Part shown: piece after piece, positions 1,658-60,062 of the stretch
Numbering within the stretch: the first letter of the stretch is position 1
Layout: each line of letters starts with the position of its first letter
Source: Mobula hypostoma
Taxonomy: Eukaryota
Length of the DNA: 64,000 bases
Assembly: GCF_963921235.1 (NCBI RefSeq)
Contig: NC_086108.1
Span: forward strand, 63,676,001-63,740,000
Reading direction: 5' to 3'
Position numbers and translations under genes: made by a program
Notes under the pieces: model-generated
The model's database searches: none
The model's input: only the letters and a program-made list of their open reading frames with translations
What the model was told of the DNA's origin: nothing

Positions 1658-4600
1658 CCTGCAATCACCGTTTTTTTGACTTTGTCATGTTAGGCAAAGA
1701 TCGCAAGATCTTACATCTACGGACTCCAGAGCCTGCCGGCCCCGATGCTAGCAGGCATGAACTTTCAATTGCGGTTTCTGCCATTGATCTCGGCGGCTCC
1801 AACACCTCAGGACATATTCAAAACCCGGACTCCAGCAACGACCATGGACACATTCGAAGTGATTACGCAACCACCAACTGCAACTCCAGCCTTGAACTCC
1901 AGGCCGGGTCTTCATGTGCTGCTGTTGTGACTCCCGTCTCCCCTTCCCCCACCACCACTCCGCAGCCCCGTCTTCCTCAGATCCCACCGTCAACTCCTGA
2001 GCCCTCAGAGGCTCCATCTTCCTCTCTCCCCAACCCTCTCCTCTCCACTGACACCCCCAGCCTCCCCCCTCCCCCCTCTGATCCCAGCTCTCATCCGTGC
2101 CGGGTCTTTACCATCCCCTCCGACCTTCAACTGTCGGAGGCAGAGTGCTCTGTCCTCAGTAAGGGCCTCACGTTTGTCCCCCTTCGCCCACACCTCAGCG
2201 AGTTCCGTGTTCGCCATGATGCGGAACTTTTCTTCCGCCGTCTCCGTCTCCGAGCCTACTTCTTCGGCAAGGACTCTTCCACCCCCACCGATGACCCCTT
2301 CTCCCGTCTTCAACCCTCCTCTTCTTCATGGACACCCCGCTCTGGTCTTCTGCCTGCTCTGGATCTCTTTATTGCCAACTGCCGACGGGACATCAACCGT
2401 CTCGACTTCACCGCACCTTGTCCCCATTCCAAACTCACTCCTTCGGAACGCTCTGCTCTCCACTCCCTCTGCACTAATCCTAACATTATTATTAAACCCG
2501 CTGATAAAGGGGGTGCTGTTGTAGTCTGGCGTACTGACCTCTACCTTGCCGAGGCACAGCGACAACTCGCGGGTACCTCCTCTTATTTACCCCTCGATCG
2601 TGACCCCACTAAGGAGCACCAGGCCATTGTCTCCCACACTATCAACGACTTTATCCGCTCAGGGGATCTCCCATCCACTGCTACCAACCTTATAGTTCCC
2701 ACACCCCGCACTTCCCGTTTCTACCTCCTACCCAAGATCCACAAACCTGCCTGTCCTGGCTGACCTATTGTCTCAGCTTGCTCCTGCCCCACCGAACTCG
2801 TTTCTGCATACCTCGACACTGTTTTATCACCCCTTGTTCAATCCCTTCCGACCCATGTTCGTGACACTTCTCACGCTCTTAAACTTTTCGATGATTTTAA
2901 GTTCCCTGGCCCCCACCGCTTTATTTTCACCATGGATGTCCAGTCCTTATATACTTCCATCCCCCATCAGGAAGGTCTCAAAGCTCTACGCTTCTTTTTG
3001 GATTCCAGACCTAATCAGTTCCCCTCTACCACCACTCTGCTCCGTCTAGCGGAATTAGTCCTTACTCTTAATAATTTCTCCTTTTGCTCCTCCCATTTCC
3101 TCCAAACTAACGGTGTAGCTATGGACACCCGTATGGGTCCTAGCTCTGCCTGCCTTTTTGTTGGGTTTGTGGAACAGTCTATGTTCCGTGCCTATTCTGG
3201 TATATGTCCCCCACTTTTCCTTCGCTACATCGACGACTGCATTGGCGCTGCTTCCTGCACGCATGCAGAACTCGTTGACTTTATTAACTTTGCCTCCAAC
3301 TTTCACCCTGCCCTCAAGTTTACCTGGTCCATTTCCGACACCTCCCTCCCCTTTCTAGATCTTTCTGTCTCTGTCTCTGGAGACAGCTTATCCACTGATG
3401 TCTACTATAAGCCTACTGACTCTCACAGCTATCTTGACTATTCCTCTTCTCACCCTGTCTCTTGCAAAAACGCCATCCCCTTCTCGCAATTCCTCCGTCT
3501 CCGCCGCATCTGCTCTCAGGATGAGGCTTTTCATTCTAGGACGAGGGAGATGTCTTCATTTTTTAAACAAAGGGGCTTCCCTTCCTCCACTATCAACTCT
3601 GCTCTTAAACGCATCTCCCCCATTTCACGTACATCTGCTCTCACTCCATCCTCCCACCACCCCACTAGGAATAGGGTTCCCCTGGTCCTCACCTACCACC
3701 CCACTAGCCTCCAGGTCCAACATATTATTCTCCGTAACTTCCACCACCTCCAACGGGATCCCACCTCTAAGCACATCTTTCCCTCCCCCCCCTCTGCATT
3801 CCGCAGGGATCGCTCCCTACACAACTCCCTTGTCCATTCGTCCCCCCCATCCCTCCCCACTGATCTCCCTCCTGGCACTTATCCGTGTAAGCGGAACAAG
3901 TGCTACACATGCCCTTACACTTCCTCCCTTACCACCATTCAGGGCCCCAAACAGTCCTTCCAGGTGAGGCATCACTTCACCTGTGAGTCGACTGGGGTGA
4001 TATACTGCGTCCGGTGCTCCCGATGTGGCCTTTTATATATTGGTGAGACCCGACGCAGACTGGGAGACCACTTTGCTGAACATCTACGCTCTGTCCGCCA
4101 GAGAAAGCAGGATCTCCCAGTGGCCACACATTTTAATTCCACATCCCATTCCCATTCTGACATGTCTATCCACGGCCTCCTCTACTGTAAAGATGAAGCC
4201 ACACTCAGGTTGGAGGAACAACACCTTATATCCGTCTGGGTAGCCTCCAACCTGATGGCATGAACATTGACTTCTCTAACTTCCGCTAGGCCCCACCTCC
4301 CCCTCGTACCCCATCTGTTACTCATTTTTTTGCACACATTCTTTCTCTCACTCTCCTTTTTCTCCCTCTGTCCCTCTGAATATACCTCTTGCCCATCCTC
4401 TGGGTTAACGCCCCCGTCCCGTCTTTCTTCCCGGACCTCCTGTCCCATGATCCTCTCGTATCCCCTTTTGCCTATCACCTGTCCAGCTCTCGGCTCTATC
4501 CCTCCCCCTCCTGTCTTCTCCTATCATTTTCCATCTCCCCCTCCCCCTCCAGCTTTCAAATCCCTTACTCACTCTTCCTTCAGTTAGTCCTGACGAAGGG

Positions 4601-23249: not shown

Positions 23250-26200
23250 AAAAATTTTTTGAGGATGTGACTAAACACATTGATGGAGTTAGAGCAGTAG
23301 ATGTAGTGTATATGGATTTCAGCAAGGCATTTGATAAGGTACACCGTGCAAGGCTGATTGAGAAAGTAAGGAGGCATGGGATCCAAGGGGATATTGCTTT
23401 GTGGATCCAGAATTGGCTTACCACAGAGTGGTTGTACACGGGTCATATTCTGTTTGGAGGTTGGTGCCTCAAGGATCAGTTCTGGAACCCCTACTCTTCG
23501 TAATTTTTATAAATGACCTGGATGAGGAAGTGGATGGATAGGTTAGTAAATTTGCTGATGACACAAAGGTTGGGGGTGTTGTGGGTAGTGTGGAGGGCTG
23601 TTACAGGTTACAGCGGGACAATGATAGGATGCAAAACTGGGCTGAGAAGTGGCAGATGGAGTTCAACCCAGATAAGTGTGAGGTGGTTCATTTTGGTAGG
23701 ACAAATATGACGGCAGAATATAGTATTAATAGAACATAGAACATAGAATATTACAGCACAGTACAGGCCCTTCGGCCCACAATGTTGTGCTGACCTTCAA
23801 ACCCTGCCTCCCATATAAGTCCCCAACTTAAATTCCTCCATATACCTGTCCAGTAGTCTCTTAAACTTCACTAGTGCATCTGCCTCCACCACTGACTCAG
23901 GCAGTGCATTCCACGCACCAATCACTCTCTGAATAAAAAACCTTCCTCTGATATCACCCTTGAACCTCCCACCCCTTACCTTAAAGCCATGTATTGAGCA
24001 GTGGTGCCCTGGGGAAGAGGCGCTGGCTATCCACTCTATCTATTCCTCTTATTATCTTGTACACCTCTATCATGTCTCCTCTCATCCTCCTTCTCTCCAA
24101 AGAGTAAAGCCCCAGCTCCCTTAATCTCTGATCATAATCCATACTCTCTAATCCAGGCAGCAGCCTGGTAAATCTCCTCTGTACCCTTCCCAATGCTTCC
24201 ACATCCTTCCTATAGTGAGGCGACCAGAACTGGACACAGTACTCCAAGTGTGGCCTAACCAGAGTTTTATAGAGATGCATCATTACATCGCGACTCTTAA
24301 ACTCTATCCCTCGATTTATGAAAGCTAACACCCCATAAGCTTTCTTAACTACCCTATCCACCTGTGAGGCAACTTTCAGGGATCTGTGGACATGTACACC
24401 CAGATCCCTCTGCTCCTCCAAACTACCAAGTATCCTGCCATTTATTTTGTACTCTGCCTTGGAGTTTGTCCTTCCAAAGTGTACCACCTCACACTTCTCT
24501 GGGTTGAATTCCATCTGCCACTTCTCAGCCCACTTCTGCATCCTATCAATGTCTCTCTGCAATCTTTGACAATCCTCTACAATATCTACAACACCACCCA
24601 CCTTTGTGTCATCTGCAAACTCGCCAACCCACCCTTCTACCCCAACATCCAGGTCATTAATAAAAATCACGAAAAGTAGAGGTCCCAGATCAGATCCTAG
24701 TCACAATCCTCCAATCTGAATGTACTCCCTCCACCATGACCCACAAGTTCTAGCCTAATAGCCTCATAATTTGCCCTTCCCCGATTAAAAATTTTCCTGT
24801 CCTCTCTGATTCTGTCCTTTTCCATGATGATGCTAAAGGTCAGTGAGCAGTGGTCACTGTCCCCCAGTTACTCACCCACTGAGAGATCTGTGAGTGACCC
24901 GGTTCATTACCTAGTACTAGATCTAGTATGGCATTCCCCCTAGTCGGCTTGTCCACATACTGTGACAGGAATCCATCATGGACACACTTAACAAACTCTG
25001 CCCCATCTAAACCCTTGGAACTAATCAGGTGCCAATCAATATTAGGGAAGTTAAAGTCACCCATGATAACAACCCTGTTATTTTTGCACCTTTCCAAAAT
25101 CTGCCTCCCAATCTGCTCCTCTGTATCTCTGCTGCTACCAGGGGGCCTATAGAATACCCCCAATAGAGTAGCTGCTCCCTTCCTGTTCCTGACTTCCACC
25201 CATATTGACTCAAAAGAGGATCCTGCTACATTACCCACCCTTTCTGTATCTGTAATAGTACCCCTGACCAGTAATGCCACCCCTCCTCCCCTTTTTCCAT
25301 CCTCTCTATCCCTTTTAAAACACTGAAATCCAGGAATATTGAGAATCCGTTCCTGCCCTGGTGCCAGCCAACTCTCTGTAATGGCCACTACATCATAATT
25401 CCATGTATGTTTCCAAGCTCTCAGTTCATCACCTTTGTTCCTGATGCTTCTTGCATTGAGGTACACACATCTCAGCCCTTCTACCTTACTGTCTTCACAC
25501 GATTTATTCTGCTTCTCTTTCCTCAAAGCCTCTCTATATGTTAGATCTGGCTTTACTCCATGCACTTCTTTCACTGCTCTATCGCTCTGGGTCCCATCCC
25601 CCTTGCAAGTTAGTTTAAACCCTCCCGAACCATGCTAGCAAACCTACCTGCAAAGATATTGGTCCCCCTAGAGTTCAGGTGCAACCCATCCAATCTGTAC
25701 AGGTCCCACCTTCCCCAGAAGAGATCCCAATGATCCAAAAATCTAAAACCCTGCTCCCTGCACCAACTCCTCAGCCACGCATTCAACTGCCATCTCCTCC
25801 AATACTTACCATCACTGTCACGTAGCACTGGCAGCAATCCTGAGAACGCCACCCTTGAGGTCCTGTTCTTCAGCCTTCTGCCTAGTTCCCGAAACTCACA
25901 CTTCAGGACCTCATCCCTCTTCCTGCCTATGTCGTTGGTCCCTACATGTATCATGACTTCTGGTTGCTTTCCCTCTCATACCAGGATGTCGTGCACCCGG
26001 TCAGAGACATCCCAGACCCTGGCATCCTCTTAATGGTAAGACTCTTGGTAGTGTGGAGGATCAGAGGGATCTTGCGTTCTGAGACCATAGGACACTCAAA
26101 TCTGCTGCGCAGTTTGATTCTGTGGTTCAGAAGGCATACGGTGCATTGGCCTTCATCAATCGTGGGATTGAGTTTAGGAGCTGACAGGTAATGTTGCAGC

Positions 26201-26750
26201 TATATAGGACCCTGGTCAGATCCCACTTGGAGTACTGTGCTCAGTTCTGGTCACCTCACTACAGGAAGAATGTGGAAACCATAGAAAGGGTGCAGAGGAG
26301 ATTTACAAGGATATTGCCTAGATTGGGGGGCATACCTTATGAGAAGAGGTTGAGTGAGCTCGGCCTTTTCTCCTTGGAGCAACAGAGGATGAGAGGTGGC
26401 ATGACAGAATTGCATAAGATAATGAGAAGCATTGATCGTGTGGATAGTCAGAGGCTTTTTCGCAGGGCGGAAATGGCTAACATGAGAGGGCACAGTTGTA
26501 AGGTGCTTGAAAGTGGGTACATCGGAGATGTCATGGGTAAGTTTTTTACGCAGAGAGTGCTGGGCTGCCAGCAACGGTGGTGGAGGTGGACGTGATAGGG
26601 TATTTTAAGAGATGCCTGGATAGGTAGATGGAGCTGAGAAGAATAGAGGGCTAGAGGTAGTCCTAGGTAATTTCTAAGGTAAGGCCATAATCGGCACAGT
26701 TTTGTGGGCCGAAGGGCCTATATTGTGCTGTAGGTTTTCTATGTTTTCTG
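23250..26750 (+). mobile_element. CR1 3' portion split by a younger opposite-strand CR1 (host pieces 23250-23730 and about 26030-26750)
   Basis: VDVVYMDFSKAFDKV and LYRTLVRSHLEYCAQFWSP peptides; the sequence rejoins as ...tattaat|ggtaag..., with TTAAT on both sides of the insert. Confidence 0.9.
23731..26025 (-). mobile_element. CR1 LINE with partial ORF1 (SGNH esterase), APE endonuclease and an internally deleted RT
   Basis: ORF1 HVGTND...DGLHLN; endonuclease YLNARS, ITESW, MGDFN, ILDLV; RT C-terminus FADD (23981-24670); (ATGTTCT)n tail at 23731-23748. Confidence 0.95.
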
Positions 26751-26849
26751 AGAGTACCTGGTTGCACACTCACTTGGTCATTTTCAGGAGGGTTCCCCAT
26801 TCTGACCAGGCCCACAATGCCGCTAACCCAGTACACAAATGTTAGCTAG

Positions 26850-27520
26850 AAAATGGATAGGGAGCATACTCTGATTAGTGATAGTCAGCATGGCTTTGTG
26901 AGGGGTAGGCCATTCCTCATGAGCCTTATTGAATTCTTTGAGGAAGTGACAAGACAAATCGATGAAGTGGTACTGTTGGGATTTTAGGAAGGCATTTGAC
27001 AAGGTTCCCCATGGTAGGCTCATTCAGAAAGTCAGGAGGAATGGGGTCCAAGGAAACTTGGCTGTGTGGATTCTGAATTGGTTACCCACATAAGGCAGAA
27101 GGATATAAATGAAGAATATTCTACTTGGAGGTTGGTGACGAGTGATGTTCCGCAGGGATCTGTTCTTGGATCTTTGTGATTCTTTAAAATGATTTGAATG
27201 AGGAAGTGGAAGGATGGGTTAGCAAATTTGCAATTGACACAAAGGTGGGTGGAATAGTGAATAGTGTAGAAAGTTGTTTTAGGCTGCAGTGGGACCTTGA
27301 TTAGGAAGCTGGGCTGTGCTGAAAAGTGACAGATGAACTTCAATCTAGAAAAATGTGAACTGATACCCTTTGGAAGTTCAAACTTGAAGGCAAAACAATG
27401 TTAATGGCAGAATTCCTGGCACTGTGGAGGAACAGAGGGATCTTGAGATCCCATAAAACTGCCATGCAATTTCATAGGGATTTAAGAATGTGTATGGTGT
27501 ATTGGCTTTCATAAGCCGGC
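26850..27520 (+). mobile_element. Decayed CR1 RT fragment
   Basis: Nucleotide similarity to the SQHGF...KAFDKVPH...SKFA region of other CR1 copies here. Confidence 0.8.
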
Positions 27521-30458: not shown

Positions 30459-30688
30459 TGTAGTAAAACATATATATATGTTGTAATTGTGTTAACTGTC
30501 TGGACAGGCCCCTCTGCTGACTGCCCCTGTGGCTCCTCCCACAGAGTCCTGTATAAAGGTGTTTTGCCTTGCCCCTCCCCCTCAGTCCGGGGCCAGACAC
30601 TCACCATGGAGGTCGTATTGTACAGCGAATAAAAGCCTTTCAGTATTTTACCAATCCTCAGCCTTTTGGAGTTATTGAAGGTGCTTCA
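30459..30688 (+). repeat. 5' LTR of a Ty3/gypsy element
   Basis: TG...CA termini, TATAAA at 30552, AATAAA at 30628, directly upstream of the gag ATG (30715). The left boundary is approximate because there is no 3' LTR to compare. Confidence 0.7.
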
Positions 30689-30714
30689 ATTTTATTCGCT
30701 GTACATTTTAATGC

Positions 30715-33700
30715 ATGGAACACACACTGAGACCAGACAAATTAGACCTCGATCCGCAAACACCTGAAGCTGGGAATGCTTTTGAACTCTGGCTGGCCTG
30801 CTTCGAAGCGTACCTAGAGGACATTAAAGCGACCGACCCCGTAGCGAAGCGCAGATTTCTACTCTCCAGGGTCAGTCCATGGGTCTATTCGCTGGTCAGA
30901 GACCAGCCGAACTACGATGGCGCGATGAGTGCCCTCAAAGGACAATACCTGTGGCCGATAAACAGCGTCTGTGCTCGGCACCGCTTAGCGACTCGGCAAC
31001 AACGTCCCGGGGAATCGAGTGTTGAGTTCGTCCAGGCCCTACGGACACTCGTGCGGGCCTGCAATTGCCAGGAGCTGACGGCGGCGCAGCATGCAGAACT
31101 CCTAGTGAGAGACGCCTTCGTCACGGGGACCAGGTCAGTGTATGTGAGCCAGCGGCTGTTGGAAAAAGCTGATCTTACCTTAAGTTTGGCGATCGAGCTG
31201 GCTGATACGTTGGAGACCGCTCTGCACAACTCTAAGGCTCTCCAGGCACACGATCCCCCAATGGCCTCATGGGCGCTGCAGACCCCGCAACCCGCTGGCA
31301 AATCGACCTCGGCTGCTGCCAGTCGCGACTCCGCGAAGTGCTACTTCTGCAGACTGGAGAAGCACCCCCAGAAATACTGCCCGGCCCGACAAGCTACCTG
31401 CTCCAGCTGCAGAAGGAAGGGCCACTTCGCCAAGGTCTGTAAGTCCAAACCGCGAGTGGGATCGAGCAGCACCGCGTGAGAGACGTGGAGGTCGCCATCT
31501 TGCCTGCCGCCATCTTCCCTGCACGCCGCCAGCACGTGCGAGACATGGGGGCTGCCATCTTTCCTGCACACCACCACCACGTGCGAGACATGGGGCGGCC
31601 ATCTTTGTCGGTGCCACCTCCCACCGCCTACGACCAACGGGTGCTCACGGGGCACCCCACCGCGCCGGACCAAGACAGCGACCCAACCCTAGCTTCCGTG
31701 ACCCTCGACCAAAGCGCTCCCCATCAGATCGCAAGGTCAATGATGGACATCCTGGTGGAGGGGCGCAGGACAAGCTGCCTGTTTGACACAGGCAGCACGG
31801 AGAGTTTTATCCACCCGGACACGATGCAGCATTGTGGACTCGTGATACGGCCGGTAAGTCAGAGGGTCATCATGGCTTCCGAGTTGCATACAACAGACAT
31901 CCGGGGAGGGTTGTGTAGCGACGCTAGTGGTGCAGGGCACAGAATATCGAGATTATGTTACTGGTCTTGCCTCAACAGTGTGCCCCTGTGCTATTGGTGT
32001 TCGACTTCCAGAGCCACCTGAAAAGCGTGACATTGAAGTATGATGGGCCCCTCCCACCAATTACTGTCGTAAATCACCAGTTTTGTAAGGATACGTCACA
32101 TACCCCGCTACTGACCACACGCACACACCAACCCGCACGTCCCACCCAACACCATGCCAACTGCCGCACTACCGACGCCACTTGCGGCCTCTCCACCCTC
32201 AAGATCCCTCCCCCACCGCTGTTTGCCAACCTGACCCCCGACTGTAAACCTGTGGCAACTAAAAGCAGGAGGTACAGCGCGGGGGGACAGAGCCTTCATT
32301 AAGTCGGAGGTGCAGCGGCTGCTCAGGGAGGGGGTCATTGAGGCAAGCACAAGTCCTTGGAGGGCGCAGGTGGTCGTTGTTCGGAACAGGGAAAAGAATA
32401 GGATGGTCGTGGACTATAGTCAGACCATCAATAGGTTCACGCAGCTCGACGCGTACCCTCTACCCCGCATCGCCGATATGGTCAATCAGATAGCACAGTA
32501 CAAGGTGTACTTGACCATAGACCTAAAATCTGCTTACCATCAGCTCCCCATCCGCCGGGAGGACTGCACTTACACCGCCTTCAAGGTGGACGGCAGGCTT
32601 TATCAATTCCTGCGCGTCCCCTTCAGTGTCACAAATGGTGTATCTGTCTTCCAGAGGGCAATGGGCCGGATGGTGGACCAGTGCCAACTGAAAGCCACGT
32701 TCCCATATCTGGATAACATCACCATCTGCGGTCATGACTGGCAGGATCACGACAACAACCTCCAAAAATTTCTCCAAGCAGTCAAAGCTTTCAATCTCAC
32801 CTATAACAAGGACAAGTGCGTATTCGGGACCACCCAACTTGCTATCCTTGGGTGTGTCGTGGAGAACGGAGTCATTGGCCCTGACCCCGACCGTATGCAC
32901 CCCCTGTTGGAACTCCCTCTTCCCAACACCCTCAGAGCCCTCAAAAGGTGCCTGGGCTTATTTTCATATTATGCCCAATGGGTCTCTAACTATGCAGACA
33001 AGGCCCACCCCCTGGTCAAGTCCACCACATTCCCCCTCTCTACCGAGGCCCGTGCGGCCTTCAGCCACATAAAAGGGGACATTGCCAAAGCAGCAATGCA
33101 TGCGGTGGATGAGGCCATTCCCTTCCAAGTAAAGAGTGACGCCTCCGACTTTGCGCTGGCTGCTACCCCAACCAGGCGGGAAGACCAGTGACGTTCTTCT
33201 CCCGTACGCTTCAAAGCCCTGAAATTCGGCACTCCGTGGTAGAGAAAGAGGCCCAGGCCATAGTGGAAGCTATTAGGCACTGGAGGCACTATTTTGCTGG
33301 CAAAGGGTTCACCCTGATAACTAACCAGCGCTCAGTCGCATTCATGTTTAATAATCAACAGCGGAGCAAAATCAAAAATGATAAAATTCTGAGGTGGAGA
33401 ATCGAACTCTCCACCTACAACTATGACATCATGTCCAGGCCTGGGAAGCTCAACGAGCCCTCCAATGCCATATCCTGGGGAATGTGCACCAGCGCGCAGA
33501 TCGACCAGCTATATGCCCTACACGTAGATCTTTGCTACCCAGGGGTCACCCGGCTTTTCCACTTCGTGAAAGCCCGGAACCTGCCTTACTCCCTTGAGGA
33601 GATCAGGACAATGACCAGGGACTGCCAAGTCTGCGCAGAGTGCAAACCACACTTCTACCGACCCGAAAAGGCACCACTCATCAAGGCCACCCGCCCCTTT

Positions 33701-34530
33701 GAGCGATTGAGTGTTGACTTTAAGGGCCCCCTTCCCTCCACCGACCGCAATGTGTACTTTCTTAATGTAATTGACGAGTACTCACGGTTCCCCTTCGCCA
33801 TCCCCTGCCCCGACACCACTACCACGTCAGTTATAAAAGCCCTGCGCAAGCTCTACACTCTGTTCGGATACCCATGCTATATCCACAGTGACAGAGGGTC
33901 CTCGTTTATGAGTGATGAGCTGCGCCAATATCTACTGGCTAGGGGAATTGCAACCAGTAGGACCACGAGCTATAATCCCCGGGGGAATGGACAGGTAGAG
34001 AAGGAGAATGGCACGGTGTGGAAAGCCACACTCTTAGCCCTCAGGTCAAAGGGACTGCCGGTCTCCCGCTGGCAGGAGGTCCTTCCCGAGGCACTCCACT
34101 CCATCCGCTCCCTGTTATGCACAGCCACCAATGCCACCCCTCATGAGCGGCTCTTTTCTTTTCCCAGAAAGTCGACCACTGTAACCACTCTACCAACTTG
34201 GCTGACGTCCCCGGGGCCAGTGCTGCTCCAGAAACATGCGAGGAGAAATAAATACTCCCCGATGGTCGAGAGGGTTCACTTACTTCATGCGAACCCTCAG
34301 TATGCCTACGTGGTTTTACCTGATGGGCAGGTGGACATGGTCTCCATCCGCGACCTGGCGCCTGCAGGAGCACCGGGCCCCTACCCTGAACACTCCGTGA
34401 TGACTGTTGACCCCGTACCCACCGATGTATGTACCCATGAGACACTGCACACTCCAAACCCTACACAGACACCACACGACACTCCCATACCGGGCGCGAC
34501 GCACACACACGAGGGAATACCGACGCCTAA
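30715..34530 (+). mobile_element. Ty3/gypsy (Mag-like) LTR retrotransposon internal region, frameshifted and 3'-truncated
   Basis: Gag with two CCHC knuckles (CYFCRLEKHPQKYC, CSSCRRKGHFAKVC); protease FDTGS; RT IDLKSAYHQL and YLDN; RNase H SDASD; integrase VDFKG, HSDRG, QVEK. Order is PR-RT-RH-IN. Confidence 0.95.
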
Positions 34531-35067
34531 CATGCTGGTAACCAACTTAGTATATGCATTGCTACTGCTCTGAAAATCTTATTGGCTTCAAACATGCTGA
34601 ACAGACTATTAACTGGATGTTAATCAGAGCTTCTGGAAGTCCATATATACATTCAGTATAATTCCTTCATCAACTCCTGTACTTGTAAAATAATTCATTC
34701 AAATTAAGAATTCAAACAGGTTTAGTACATAACTATCAGTATTGCCTGCTATTTACCAGTTCAGGTTCTTTTAAGAGGCATTTAGTTCAGTCTCAACTAT
34801 ATAAACTAGGAGTAGCAATGCACAAAGCCTTCAGGACAAAAGTCAGGATGTACTCCTTGGAGTGACCCACACCTGTAGCACTTGGGTGGGAGTGAAGTAG
34901 AAAGAATGGGAGGAGGAGAGGACGATCGGGGAGTAGTTGGCTTAGGGTGCTCATAGATGCAAACACAGTACATTCCCTCAGCTGGTCATTTTTCAGCAAG
35001 AGGAATCACATGACCAGTCATGCTATTTTTAATCCTGTTCATTTAAAGTAAATTTACATTTACTTTA

Positions 35068-37267: not shown

Positions 37268-37522
37268 TGGATTGAAGCCCAAAGGTCGATCGGAAATAAG
37301 GTTGATTGGCTGTCCAGATAGCAGCCCAAAGGTCGTTTGGACATCCAGATTGAAGTCCAAGGGTTGATTGGATGTCCAGATAGCAGCCCAAAGGTCAATT
37401 GGACATCCATATTAAAGCCCAAAGATTGATTAGAAGTCCAGATCAAAGTCCAAAGGTCAAATGGACATCCAGATTGAAGCCCAAAGATTAATTGGATGTC
37501 CAGATTGAAGCCTGAAGGTCGA
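37268..37522. repeat. 31-bp minisatellite, about 8 units
   Basis: Units such as CAGATAGCAGCCCAAAGGTCGTTTGGACATC start at 37315, 37346, 37377, 37408, 37439, 37470 and 37501. Confidence 0.9.
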
Positions 37523-57010: not shown

Positions 57011-58378
57011 CTCCCTCATTAATTTTAACAATTAATGGTATTGGGTTCAATTTATTAAATTTTACATACTTGAGGAGTGGATGAGGGAAAAGCTGTTTTT
57101 GGCTTGTGTCAGTGTCCTCCTGCAGGACGCTCTGTATAGCCAGGTGACTCGCAACATGCTGCCAGCCCTGGTGGGATGACTAATCCATCTGCTGGCAGGT
57201 CATATTTCTGTGAGCCAAGGGCCAGATGGAGTTTGAAGGGCCTTAATGGAGTAGCAAGCATGGTCTCCTGTATTCAAATGGGATTACCAAATTGTGTTTT
57301 AAACTTTATTTCAAAAAATGTGTAAATTAATTTAAAGAAACACGTGAATGTGGACTTTACATAAAATTGACTTTGAATTTTTAAAACACTACTTACATGC
57401 TCTTGAACAATTTCTAAATGTATGATGACTGGAGACCTTTAGAAAAAGTGGTAAGTCAACATAATGGTCAGAGTGTAGGGCCTGAGGTTCTATCACTTGC
57501 AGCCTAGTCACCAATAGTGACTCCGGGGTCTAGAATGGGAGATCAGGTGTGTTGGTCTCGGACCTCCAGCATATCTTGTACATCTGCATGGCAATGCACC
57601 GGTGCAAGAGTTTAAACTGCACCTGATGTGAATATTGCCATTGGTTAGCTGTTCTCCATGGAACAGATGATCCATCCAGATAACAAACAGTTTTGGTGCT
57701 CGAGACGTGTGAAAAGTTGAAAATTATGTTTAATGTATCCTAAGTGGCCCTTTTTGTCCACTGCCGTTTATTTAGAATGTGCACAGCTTGCTGAAACTTA
57801 TTTTTCCAATATAAATCATAATAAAAATAAAATAAAACTGCTGGAAACCCTCAGGTCAGACAGCATCTATGGAAAGAGAAATAGCTAACTGGGAAAGAGA
57901 GAAAACAAGATAGTTTCCATTTTAGAGCAGGTGGTGGAAGAGTTAGCTTAGAGCAAAGAGAATAACTGATACTACAAGACCCCAATGACTTAAACTGGCA
58001 GGTGGAAGCACATTATGATTTTTATCTGCATCATGTGTTACTAATAGCAAAACCATTGGATATGCTTGGCAGATCAAATCAGCAAGAGAAAACTGAGCCA
58101 AAATGATGATAGACAGAAATCCCCAGTTCTAATACAGACAAAGGGAAAGTGAGTTACATACAGTTAGAGATTCAATTTTGAGTATGGAAAAAAGATGAGA
58201 TGTTGTTATTCAGTCTTGAGTTTACTCTAGTTTTAATAACACAGGAGGCCACAGACAGGACAAACTGGGAGTGGGATAGGTAGGCAGGAAACTGGAAGTA
58301 GCAAGTCTAATACATGCAACACACATCAAAGTTGCTGGTGAACGCAGCAGGCCAGGCAGCATCTGTAGGAAGAGGTGC

Positions 58379-58414
58379 AGTCGACGTTTCAGGCCGAGAC
58401 CCTTCGTCAGGACT
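58379..58414 (-). ncRNA. Minimal hammerhead ribozyme motif (PLE)
   Basis: Reverse complement is identical to 4586-4621. Confidence 0.8.
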
Positions 58415-59075
58415 AACTGAAGGAAGAGTGAGTAAGGGATTTGAAAGTTGGAGGGGGAGGGGGAGATCCAAAATGATAGGAGAAGACAGGAGGGGGAGGG
58501 ATAGAGCCAAGAGCTGGACGGGTGATAGGCAAAAGGGGATACGAGAGGATCATGGGACCGCTTTGCTGAACATCTACACTCTGTCCGCCAGAGAAAGCAG
58601 GATCTCCCAGTGGCCACACATTTTAATTCCACATCCCATTCCCATTCTGACATATCTATCCACGGCCTCCTCTACTGTAAAGATGAAGCCACACTCAGGT
58701 TGGAGGAACAACACCTTATATTCCGTCTGGATAGCCTCCAACCTGATGGCATGAACATCGACTTCTCTAACTTCCGCTAAGGCCCCACCTCCCCCTCGTA
58801 CCCCATCTGTTACTTATTTTTATGCACACATTCTTTCTCTCATTCTCCTTTTTCTCCCTCTGTCCCTCTGAATATACCTCTTGTCCATTCTCTGGGTCCC
58901 CCCCCCCCCCGACTTTCTTCCCGGACCTCCTGTCCCATGATCCTCTCGTATCCCCTTTTGTCTATCACCTGTCCAGCTCTTGGCTCCATCCCTCCCCCTC
59001 CTGTCTTCTCCTATCATTTTGGATCTCCCCCTCCCCTTCCAACTTTCAAATTCCTTACTCACTCTTCCTTCAGTT

Positions 59076-59111
59076 AGTCCTGACGAAGGGTCTCAGCCTG
59101 AAACGTCGACT
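59076..59111 (+). ncRNA. Minimal hammerhead ribozyme motif (PLE)
   Basis: AGTC-CTGACGA-AGGGTCTCAGCCT-GAAA-CGTC-GACT. Confidence 0.8.
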
Positions 59112-60062
59112 GCACCTCTTCCTACAGATGCTGCCTGGCCTGCTGCGTTCACCAGCAACTTTGATGTGTGTTGCTTGAATTTCCAGCATCTGCAGAATTC
59201 CTGTTGTTTAAGTCTAATACATCTATCAGTAACAAGGATGGCAAAATGCATCCCTGTAATAGTAGATTTACATTGCAGCTGCTTTGAAACTTAGCAGGAT
59301 ATGAATCAAAGCGAAGTCTGTAAATGGAGCAAATCAAAGTAATTTGAAGCATGTTAATTGTTAACTCTCTTTTTGTACAGTGTGAGCCCCACAGAGATTT
59401 CAAATTCATGGCATAAAAATTCATGCTTTCTTGACTATGATCAGTGAAATAATCTAAGGCTAGAAACATCACACAGCAGGCCACAACAGCATTTATCTAT
59501 ATAATGGAAGTTTAATTGCACTTGTCACATCATTTAGTTTACAATTTGACATTAGTTGTGGAGCCTAAAAGATAACAAGGGTTTATAAAACATTTATAAG
59601 TTGCATAGATTTATGTATGACTGGTTTAAAAACTATTGACAGTATTATTCTAAAATATCTTATTGCACACAAAACACTGAATAGCACACAGAAATTAAAG
59701 CAGAAAATATTGGGAATACTCAGCAGGTCAGGCAGCATCTGTGGAAGATGAAACAGTTTATGGTTTAGGTTGACAAATTATTAAAGATGAAGAGTCTTCA
59801 GCCTGAAATATTGACATTTCATCTTTCTGTAGATGCTCCCTTACCTGAGTTTTTTCTAGCATTTTCTACTTTAGAGTCATAGAACACTACAACACAGAAA
59901 CAAGCCCTTCAGCCTTCTCATCCATGCCAAACTACTAATCCGACTAGTCCCTTCAAATGCACGCAGATCATAGTCCTTCATGCTCTTCACATTCATGTGC
60001 CTATCCAAACTTCCTTCAAATCTTGAAATTGAACCCGCAATCGCCACTTCTGCTGGCAGCTT

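Follow-up and report, generated by a model that had tools for sequence, protein, structure and literature searches.

The putative primer site (PBS) of a decayed Ty3/Gypsy copy in the Mobula hypostoma genome is complementary to a segment of the element's own LTR and, as judged from sequence comparison, this pairing is real and covaries over a whole animal Gypsy clade. The pairing likely serves a Tf1-like, tRNA-free self-priming whose primer would be released by an internal cut at the predicted poly(A) signal, a reading to which we assign a probability of roughly 0.78. Throughout, the window denotes the whole analysed stretch of 64,000 nucleotides. Table 1 lists the element's features.

Table 1. 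Parts of the retrotransposon copy in the window, with the basis of each assignment.
Feature	Position	Strand	Basis
5' LTR (230 nt, TG...CA)	30459..30688	+	3' LTRs, PPT and 5-bp TSDs of sister copies
TATAAA box	30552..30557	+	sequence; 62 nt before arm
Initiator-like TCAGTC with predicted transcript start A30584	30582..30587	+	32 nt after TATA T; fold-back ends
Predicted 35-nt leader at the primer's 5' end, unpaired	30584..30618	+	inferred
Primer arm in R (16 nt, PBS-complementary; predicted cut after 30634)	30619..30634	+	pairing, folding, covariation
AATAAA, predicted poly(A) signal within arm	30628..30633	+	sequence and folding
Second stem (30635-30645 with 30673-30684), stacked on PBS helix, starts RCC	30635..30684	+	folding
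Spacer, single base A between LTR end and PBS	30689	+	LTR end from sister copies
Putative PBS (arm complement, without TGG)	30690..30705	+	sequence comparison
gag, two CCHC knuckles; in-frame stop ends this copy's frame	30715..31479	+	translation; Gag N-terminus common to homologues
pol pieces: protease, RT with YLDN, RNase H, integrase; frames broken	31443..34538	+	truncated before PPT and 3' LTR

The window element is a Ty3/Gypsy LTR retrotransposon, given the TG...CA LTRs, TSD and PPT of its family and the pol order PR-RT-RH-IN. The window copy itself has lost its PPT and 3' LTR, i.e., homology to a two-LTR copy stops at 34538. As claimed in the original prediction, TTTTATTCGCTGTACA (30690-30705) is the exact reverse complement of 30619-30634, a segment that holds AATAAA, and these two sites are the window's sole exact matches to the 16-nt motif. 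The LTR had been predicted to end with the CA at 30688 and to be followed by no TGG. Both points are borne out by the 3' LTRs and TSDs of sister copies: 18 of 20 whole sister copies have a direct second LTR and 17 of these reach the LTR end, terminating in CTTCA (16) or CTTTA (1). Their 5-bp TSDs are exact in 15 cases, match at 4/5 positions in one and are absent in one. Since the sister copies fix the LTR at 30459-30688, the PBS starts one base past the LTR. The fold of 30615-30710 (-34.3 kcal/mol, z of -7.5) is matched in stability by none of 200 shuffles; in the predicted structure, the 16-bp helix sits atop the second stem and the LTR end is bulged out.

Candidate loci of the window family number some 2,400-3,200 in this genome. 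In 67 of the 76 distinct copies that include LTR, PBS and the start of gag, 14 or more of the 16 arm/PBS pairs are intact. A search of the same genome with two foreign Gag pieces recovered this family together with a single sister subfamily of 7 copies, whose LTRs are 82% identical to those of the main subfamily. The sister helix shows an A-T to T-A transversion on both sides in 7/7 copies and a second double change in 3/7. The TATA element reads TATAAAGG in 59/69 main-subfamily copies and AATAAAG- in 5/7 sister copies, while the Inr TCAGTC is retained in 62/69 and 6/7, respectively. A C-to-T (CpG) arm variant was the intended test of primer-to-PBS copying; here, compensation is not significantly commoner (7/30 vs. 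8/66, p=0.22). Within the family, arm and PBS do not stand out clearly from the rest of the LTR in conservation (non-CpG minor-allele values of 0.027 and 0.041 vs. 0.033-0.046), as expected because the copies decay after insertion. A search for poly(A)-tailed genomic copies gave 0 matches.

We then compared PBS and LTR across relatives. Rays, catsharks, cnidarians, Trichuris/Trichinella and a damselfly provide the named homologues (proteins only). With an alignment of 77 homologues as query, we obtained 80 metagenome and 9 genome-collection loci; scans of viral contigs gave no relatives. We dropped loci without a 5' end, within-family duplicates and three loci whose LTR is cut or unclear (L126, L137, L144). 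The final set comprises 28 families and that of the window, i.e., 29 families, several of which are close kin. The LTR end was set independently of the duplex in 11/29 families (from sister copies, a second LTR or a repeat at the contig end) and chosen among the CA sites before gag, with the duplex known, in 18/29.

An own-LTR duplex score of at least 10 is reached by 27/29 families, compared to 44/812 cross-family pairs; the LTRs are unrelated. That is, besides the window family, 26/28 relative families pair their PBS with their own LTR, and the pairing is kept among relatives with changed sequence; the refuting outcomes named in the original prediction, a different LTR boundary or complementarity lost among relatives, thus did not occur. 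All 11 families with an independently fixed LTR end score 10.5-19.9. The two families that score at chance (L139, L146) both look decayed. For arm positions -4 to -16 (27 families), pairing is above 2000 permutations at each position (p<=0.005 each) and totals 395 pairs vs. at most 262 in the permutations, while from -17 it is at chance. Individual changes follow the same pattern: in L138, even the TAAA is changed and the PBS changes to match, and L116 differs from its sisters by a single change in both LTRs that is mirrored in the PBS. Across families, 20-77 nt separate the arm end from the LTR end. The arm is followed by CC at +2,+3, i.e., the RCC start of the second stem, in 21/27 families, and the length of this stem is weakly above that of shuffles (18/300 shuffles as good). 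The covariation supports the earlier proposal of tRNA-independent priming by an R/U5-derived end, where the priming itself is what we infer.

In the mechanism we propose, transcription would start at A30584 and the 5' end of the RNA would fold back on itself, bringing 16 nt of R into a duplex with the PBS, which begins one base beyond the LTR. By analogy with Tf1, the element's RT/RNase H may cut right after AATAAAA (30634), and minus-strand DNA synthesis would begin from the 3' end thus released; the primer would be about 51 nt long, including the 35-nt unpaired leader. The resulting minus-strand DNA would measure 55 nt in the window family, with strong-stop DNA of 21-78 nt predicted across families, and transfer would occur via the short R stretch between cut and poly(A) site. 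Plus-strand synthesis would copy about 16 nt of the primer and thus rewrite the PBS. Such copying would regenerate the PBS and therefore explain the covariation.

For the window family, the transcript start can be approached from the genome. TATA and Inr are at -83 and -51 relative to the arm end, which places the predicted start A30584 51 nt before the arm end. We searched for fold-back junctions that join sense R up to AATAAAA to antisense U5, i.e., the expected trace of a primer copy. This junction is found in 59 loci, while the reversed-pattern control yields 0 and the metagenome loci none. The respective sister-subfamily pattern has 55 matches, from which 20 new loci were examined and 2 new loci left out (79 examined in total). 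The 59 loci comprise 34 full palindromes, 8 in which the left LTR part is complete and the right one cut, 8 that run into PPT and pol, 6 truncated ones and 3 small inversions. The 20 sister-pattern loci divide into 14 that extend to the LTR start, 2 that continue into PPT/pol and 4 truncated ones. Since 25 of the 34 full palindromes carry a 5-bp TSD at 4/5 or better, palindromes were formed before integration. Their arms are 94.7% alike within a locus vs. 92.6% between loci, and the palindromes therefore look independently formed.

The truncated fold-backs (n=10) are informative about the template end. Three of them end at LTR positions 126-127, i.e., 30584-30585 (L326, L356, L374; p of about 0.001), and L374 is flanked by perfect TSDs. 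Two others are later deletions and five end at about 122-149, such that none of the ten ends deep in U3 (LTR 16-117). Microhomology with internal sequence is used by 2/3 start-site junctions, and one sister-subfamily fold-back extends 4 nt beyond the predicted start. These fold-backs fit a template RNA with its 5' end near 30584 and a plus strand that copied the primer over varying lengths. Together with the TATA/Inr spacing of 32 nt, fold-backs ending at the Inr support, for the window family, the original view that the partner is probably not at the cap site. They are no proof of priming, since similar products result when the template is switched between arm and PBS; the palindromes and six small in-LTR inversions may arise by such switching, whatever the primer.

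Structurally, the palindromes (within L325-L407) are LTR-only insertions of about 405 bp with two U3 ends and TSDs. The six inversions (L363, L364, L373, L382, L403, L405) start from the arm end, run through about 30-60 nt of antisense U5 and then return. A few further copies (L012/L303, L015, L036, L037) have their second LTR in inverted orientation or, at the LTR, a hairpin junction.

The fold-backs also bear on an alternative that we consider unlikely, namely that the 3' copy of R self-primes. Here, the arm near the RNA 3' end would pair with the PBS, circularising or bridging genomes, and would be trimmed or cut after AATAAAA; first strand transfer would be a fold-back onto the primer molecule. 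Such priming would draw on the location of the arm in R, hence at both RNA ends, on its predicted open state in the 3' copy and on the very short U5 plus remaining R (20-77 nt). Furthermore, 10/79 fold-back loci run through U3 into PPT and pol, but such loci are also expected if the PBS end of plus-strand strong-stop DNA anneals to the 3' arm of genomic RNA. Fold-backs that stop at the predicted cap site, on the other hand, need the 5' copy as template, and the in-cis stacking of the second stem on the helix belongs to the 5' leader.

Slightly less probable still is a plain Tf1-type primer, i.e., transcription starting in the arm or close to it, with the A of AGY (-11) as start and the first 11-16 nt as primer. 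Most families show the respective A-G-Y at -11 to -9 (A in 19, G in 23 and a pyrimidine in 26 of 27 families), which would suit an 11-nt primer in some, and the sushi-type primer AGTTCGTT of this genome has the same start. In addition, a TATAWA box is found upstream in 0/10 invertebrate LTRs inspected. However, pairing extends to -16, the sister subfamily has a T at -11, and for the window family both the promoter motifs and the fold-back ends point to -51. A short cap-end primer may nevertheless hold for other families of the clade.

The poly(A) signal within the arm gives rise to a further, improbable reading: the hairpin would merely hide the signal of the 5' LTR, with priming by another primer or at another site. 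The HIV-1 poly(A) hairpin hides its 5' LTR poly(A) signal in this way. Folding predicts every base of the hexamer to be paired in the 5' leader but the copy in the 3' R to be open, and AATAAA/ATTAAA is enriched at the arm end (13/22 TAAA-ended families; expected fraction 0.13, p=7e-7). Yet neither hexamer is present in 14/27 families, and L138, L148 and L168 keep the duplex without any. The helix always begins one base past the LTR end, a register needed by priming but not by masking, and there is no other primer site before gag, whose ATG follows after 14-47 nt in most families. As regards the original suggestion of a signal-hiding hairpin, the hexamer is common and not obligatory in the arm (13/27), and hiding the signal cannot therefore be the whole function. 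Within the self-priming mechanism, masking of the 5' LTR poly(A) signal would be a side benefit: given the paired and open states predicted for the two copies, the helix would also suppress premature polyadenylation.

That a host tRNA or tRNA fragment primes, the LTR match being a by-product, has next to no probability, given no TGG within 10 nt after the LTR in 29/29 families, a PBS that varies by family while tracking each family's own LTR, and no supporting point found (a screen of 11 distinct tRNA calls, 9 of them Lys-TTT, is too narrow to count).

Phylogenetically, the clade's RTs form one group (SH-aLRT 99) in two quick trees, from which 9 and 5 rows, respectively, were dropped for short RT. 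The group is apart from 4-5 sushi-type rows of the same genome, where sushi sisterhood is not rejected (p-AU 0.27). It also lies outside five presumably Mag-type rows (support of 78 for sisterhood with Mag) and apart from presumably Osvaldo/Gmr1-type elements of this genome; both labels are our assumption from RT motifs rather than from named reference sequences. The Mag-type and Osvaldo/Gmr1-type controls have a TGG-type PBS. The earlier label 'Mag-like' is therefore half apt: the Gag with twin zinc knuckles agrees with it, while the RT forms a clade of its own outside the Mag-type elements of the genome. Chromodomain/SH3_Tf2-1 Pfam matches are found in 0/11 clade proteins scanned, and the precomputed domains of 120 homologues include no chromodomain/SH3-type tail. 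Judged by sequence, the clade probably self-primes as Tf1 does but is no Tf1/sushi member by domain content or RT tree.

Two observations accompany the trees. Among 46 clade rows, i.e., window 32235-33191 and relatives, the RT active site is YxDN in 29, YxDD in 15 and unreadable in 2, and YxDN also occurs in young copies with 99-100% identical LTRs (L112, L114, L122). The sushi-type family of this genome (L255, L259, L261, L262) also shows a self-complementary PBS, with a duplex of 10-11 bp in L259 and L261, and L259 has an ATAAAA about 30 nt before the sushi-type partner.

According to the literature passages available, Tf1/sushi chromoviruses and two plant lineages are the groups for which self-priming has been described, with proof solely from fission yeast. 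In Tf1, Tf2, Tj1 and further Tf1/sushi chromoviruses, the PBS lies beside the 5' LTR and is complementary to the element's own R, no tRNA being used; the primer of Tf1 is its first 11 nt and further stems beside the PBS helix make up the 'pretzel' (passages in PMC10085805, PMC4600332, PMC5341516). Likewise, the PBS of our clade adjoins the LTR, is complementary to it and is no tRNA-type site; of 'pretzel'-like stems, a single one is evident beside the PBS helix. In contrast to Tf1/sushi elements, the clade shows no chromodomain/SH3_Tf2-1 match (11 proteins) and forms a separate RT clade, and its partner often carries a poly(A) hexamer. The partner lies 20-77 nt from the LTR end vs. about 174 nt in the sushi-type control of the same genome, and the predicted primer of the window family is internal, with its 35-nt leader, and not the first 11 nt.

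For plants, self-priming was predicted from PBS-LTR complementarity for Tcn1 (gypsy) and TAR/Houba/Osr-1 (copia), with no mention of an overlap with the poly(A) signal in the relevant passages (PMC6317226). These are other lineages in other hosts, i.e., Tcn1 is Tf1/sushi and TAR is Ty1/copia. The Conserved Hairpin Site of fungal GalEa elements, an inverted repeat that replaces the PBS, differs as well: GalEa is copia, both arms are downstream of the LTR, and the authors, in the passages available, found no LTR complement (PMC5445492). With the Mag cluster (Mag, SURL) and Cigr-1, the clade shares short LTRs, a single compact ORF and two CCHC knuckles; two CCHC are listed for SURL, and for Cigr-1 two CCHC, a lost GPY/F and no chromodomain (entries in PMC2774666 and its supplement table). 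In this genome, however, Mag-type elements carry a TGG-type PBS and fall into another RT group. Identity of the clade with Ciona Cigr-1 is a lead only, drawn from that feature row. Saci2/lennie, described in the passages available as having tRNA PBSs, are set apart from the clade by description, not sequence. Selgy was considered as the clade's name and rejected, as it denotes a Selaginella lineage. A full-text literature search, with key older papers beyond its reach, returned no report of self-priming in an animal non-chromoviral Gypsy clade, including the passages from PMC3601003, PMC6238403, PMC12471100, PMC6934838, PMC4558846, PMC3670739 and PMC2864245.

On balance, we lean slightly towards viewing the group as a pan-animal non-chromoviral Gypsy clade with a second self-priming architecture. 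Here, one R segment would act as primer, poly(A) signal and masking helix, the capped RNA would be cut about 50 nt from its 5' end, strong-stop DNA would be as short as 21 nt, and the RT often has YxDN for YxDD. The clade's breadth comprises rays, sharks, cnidarians, nematodes and an insect by protein and some 27 further families by DNA. If true, a Tf1-style cut needs no cap-end primer, thousands of copies would be beyond tRNA-fragment silencing, and the misjudging of such elements by PBS-based LTR finders would be explained. The covarying families supply ready compensatory pairs and make the mechanism open to direct tests using short RNAs and RT, and fold-back insertions provide a genome-only route to map an RNA start.

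Some minor observations concern the collected loci and the remaining window. The LTRs of eight loci (L141, L156, L165, L175, L177, L188, L189, L193) contain pyrimidine tracts ending in YAG, i.e., splice-acceptor-like, in or just before the arm; enrichment of YAG tracts in the LTRs was unconfirmed by a strict pattern. Very short LTRs of about 80 and 120 nt are found in L141 and L193, respectively, leaving little promoter room. Clade elements on bacterial MAG contigs of the genome collection (L191-L195) are most likely eukaryotic contamination. Elsewhere, the window contains LINE-like RT/endonuclease fragments (23981-27400), a 31-nt tandem repeat (37298-37520) and an inverted SINE-like copy pair (58309-59181).
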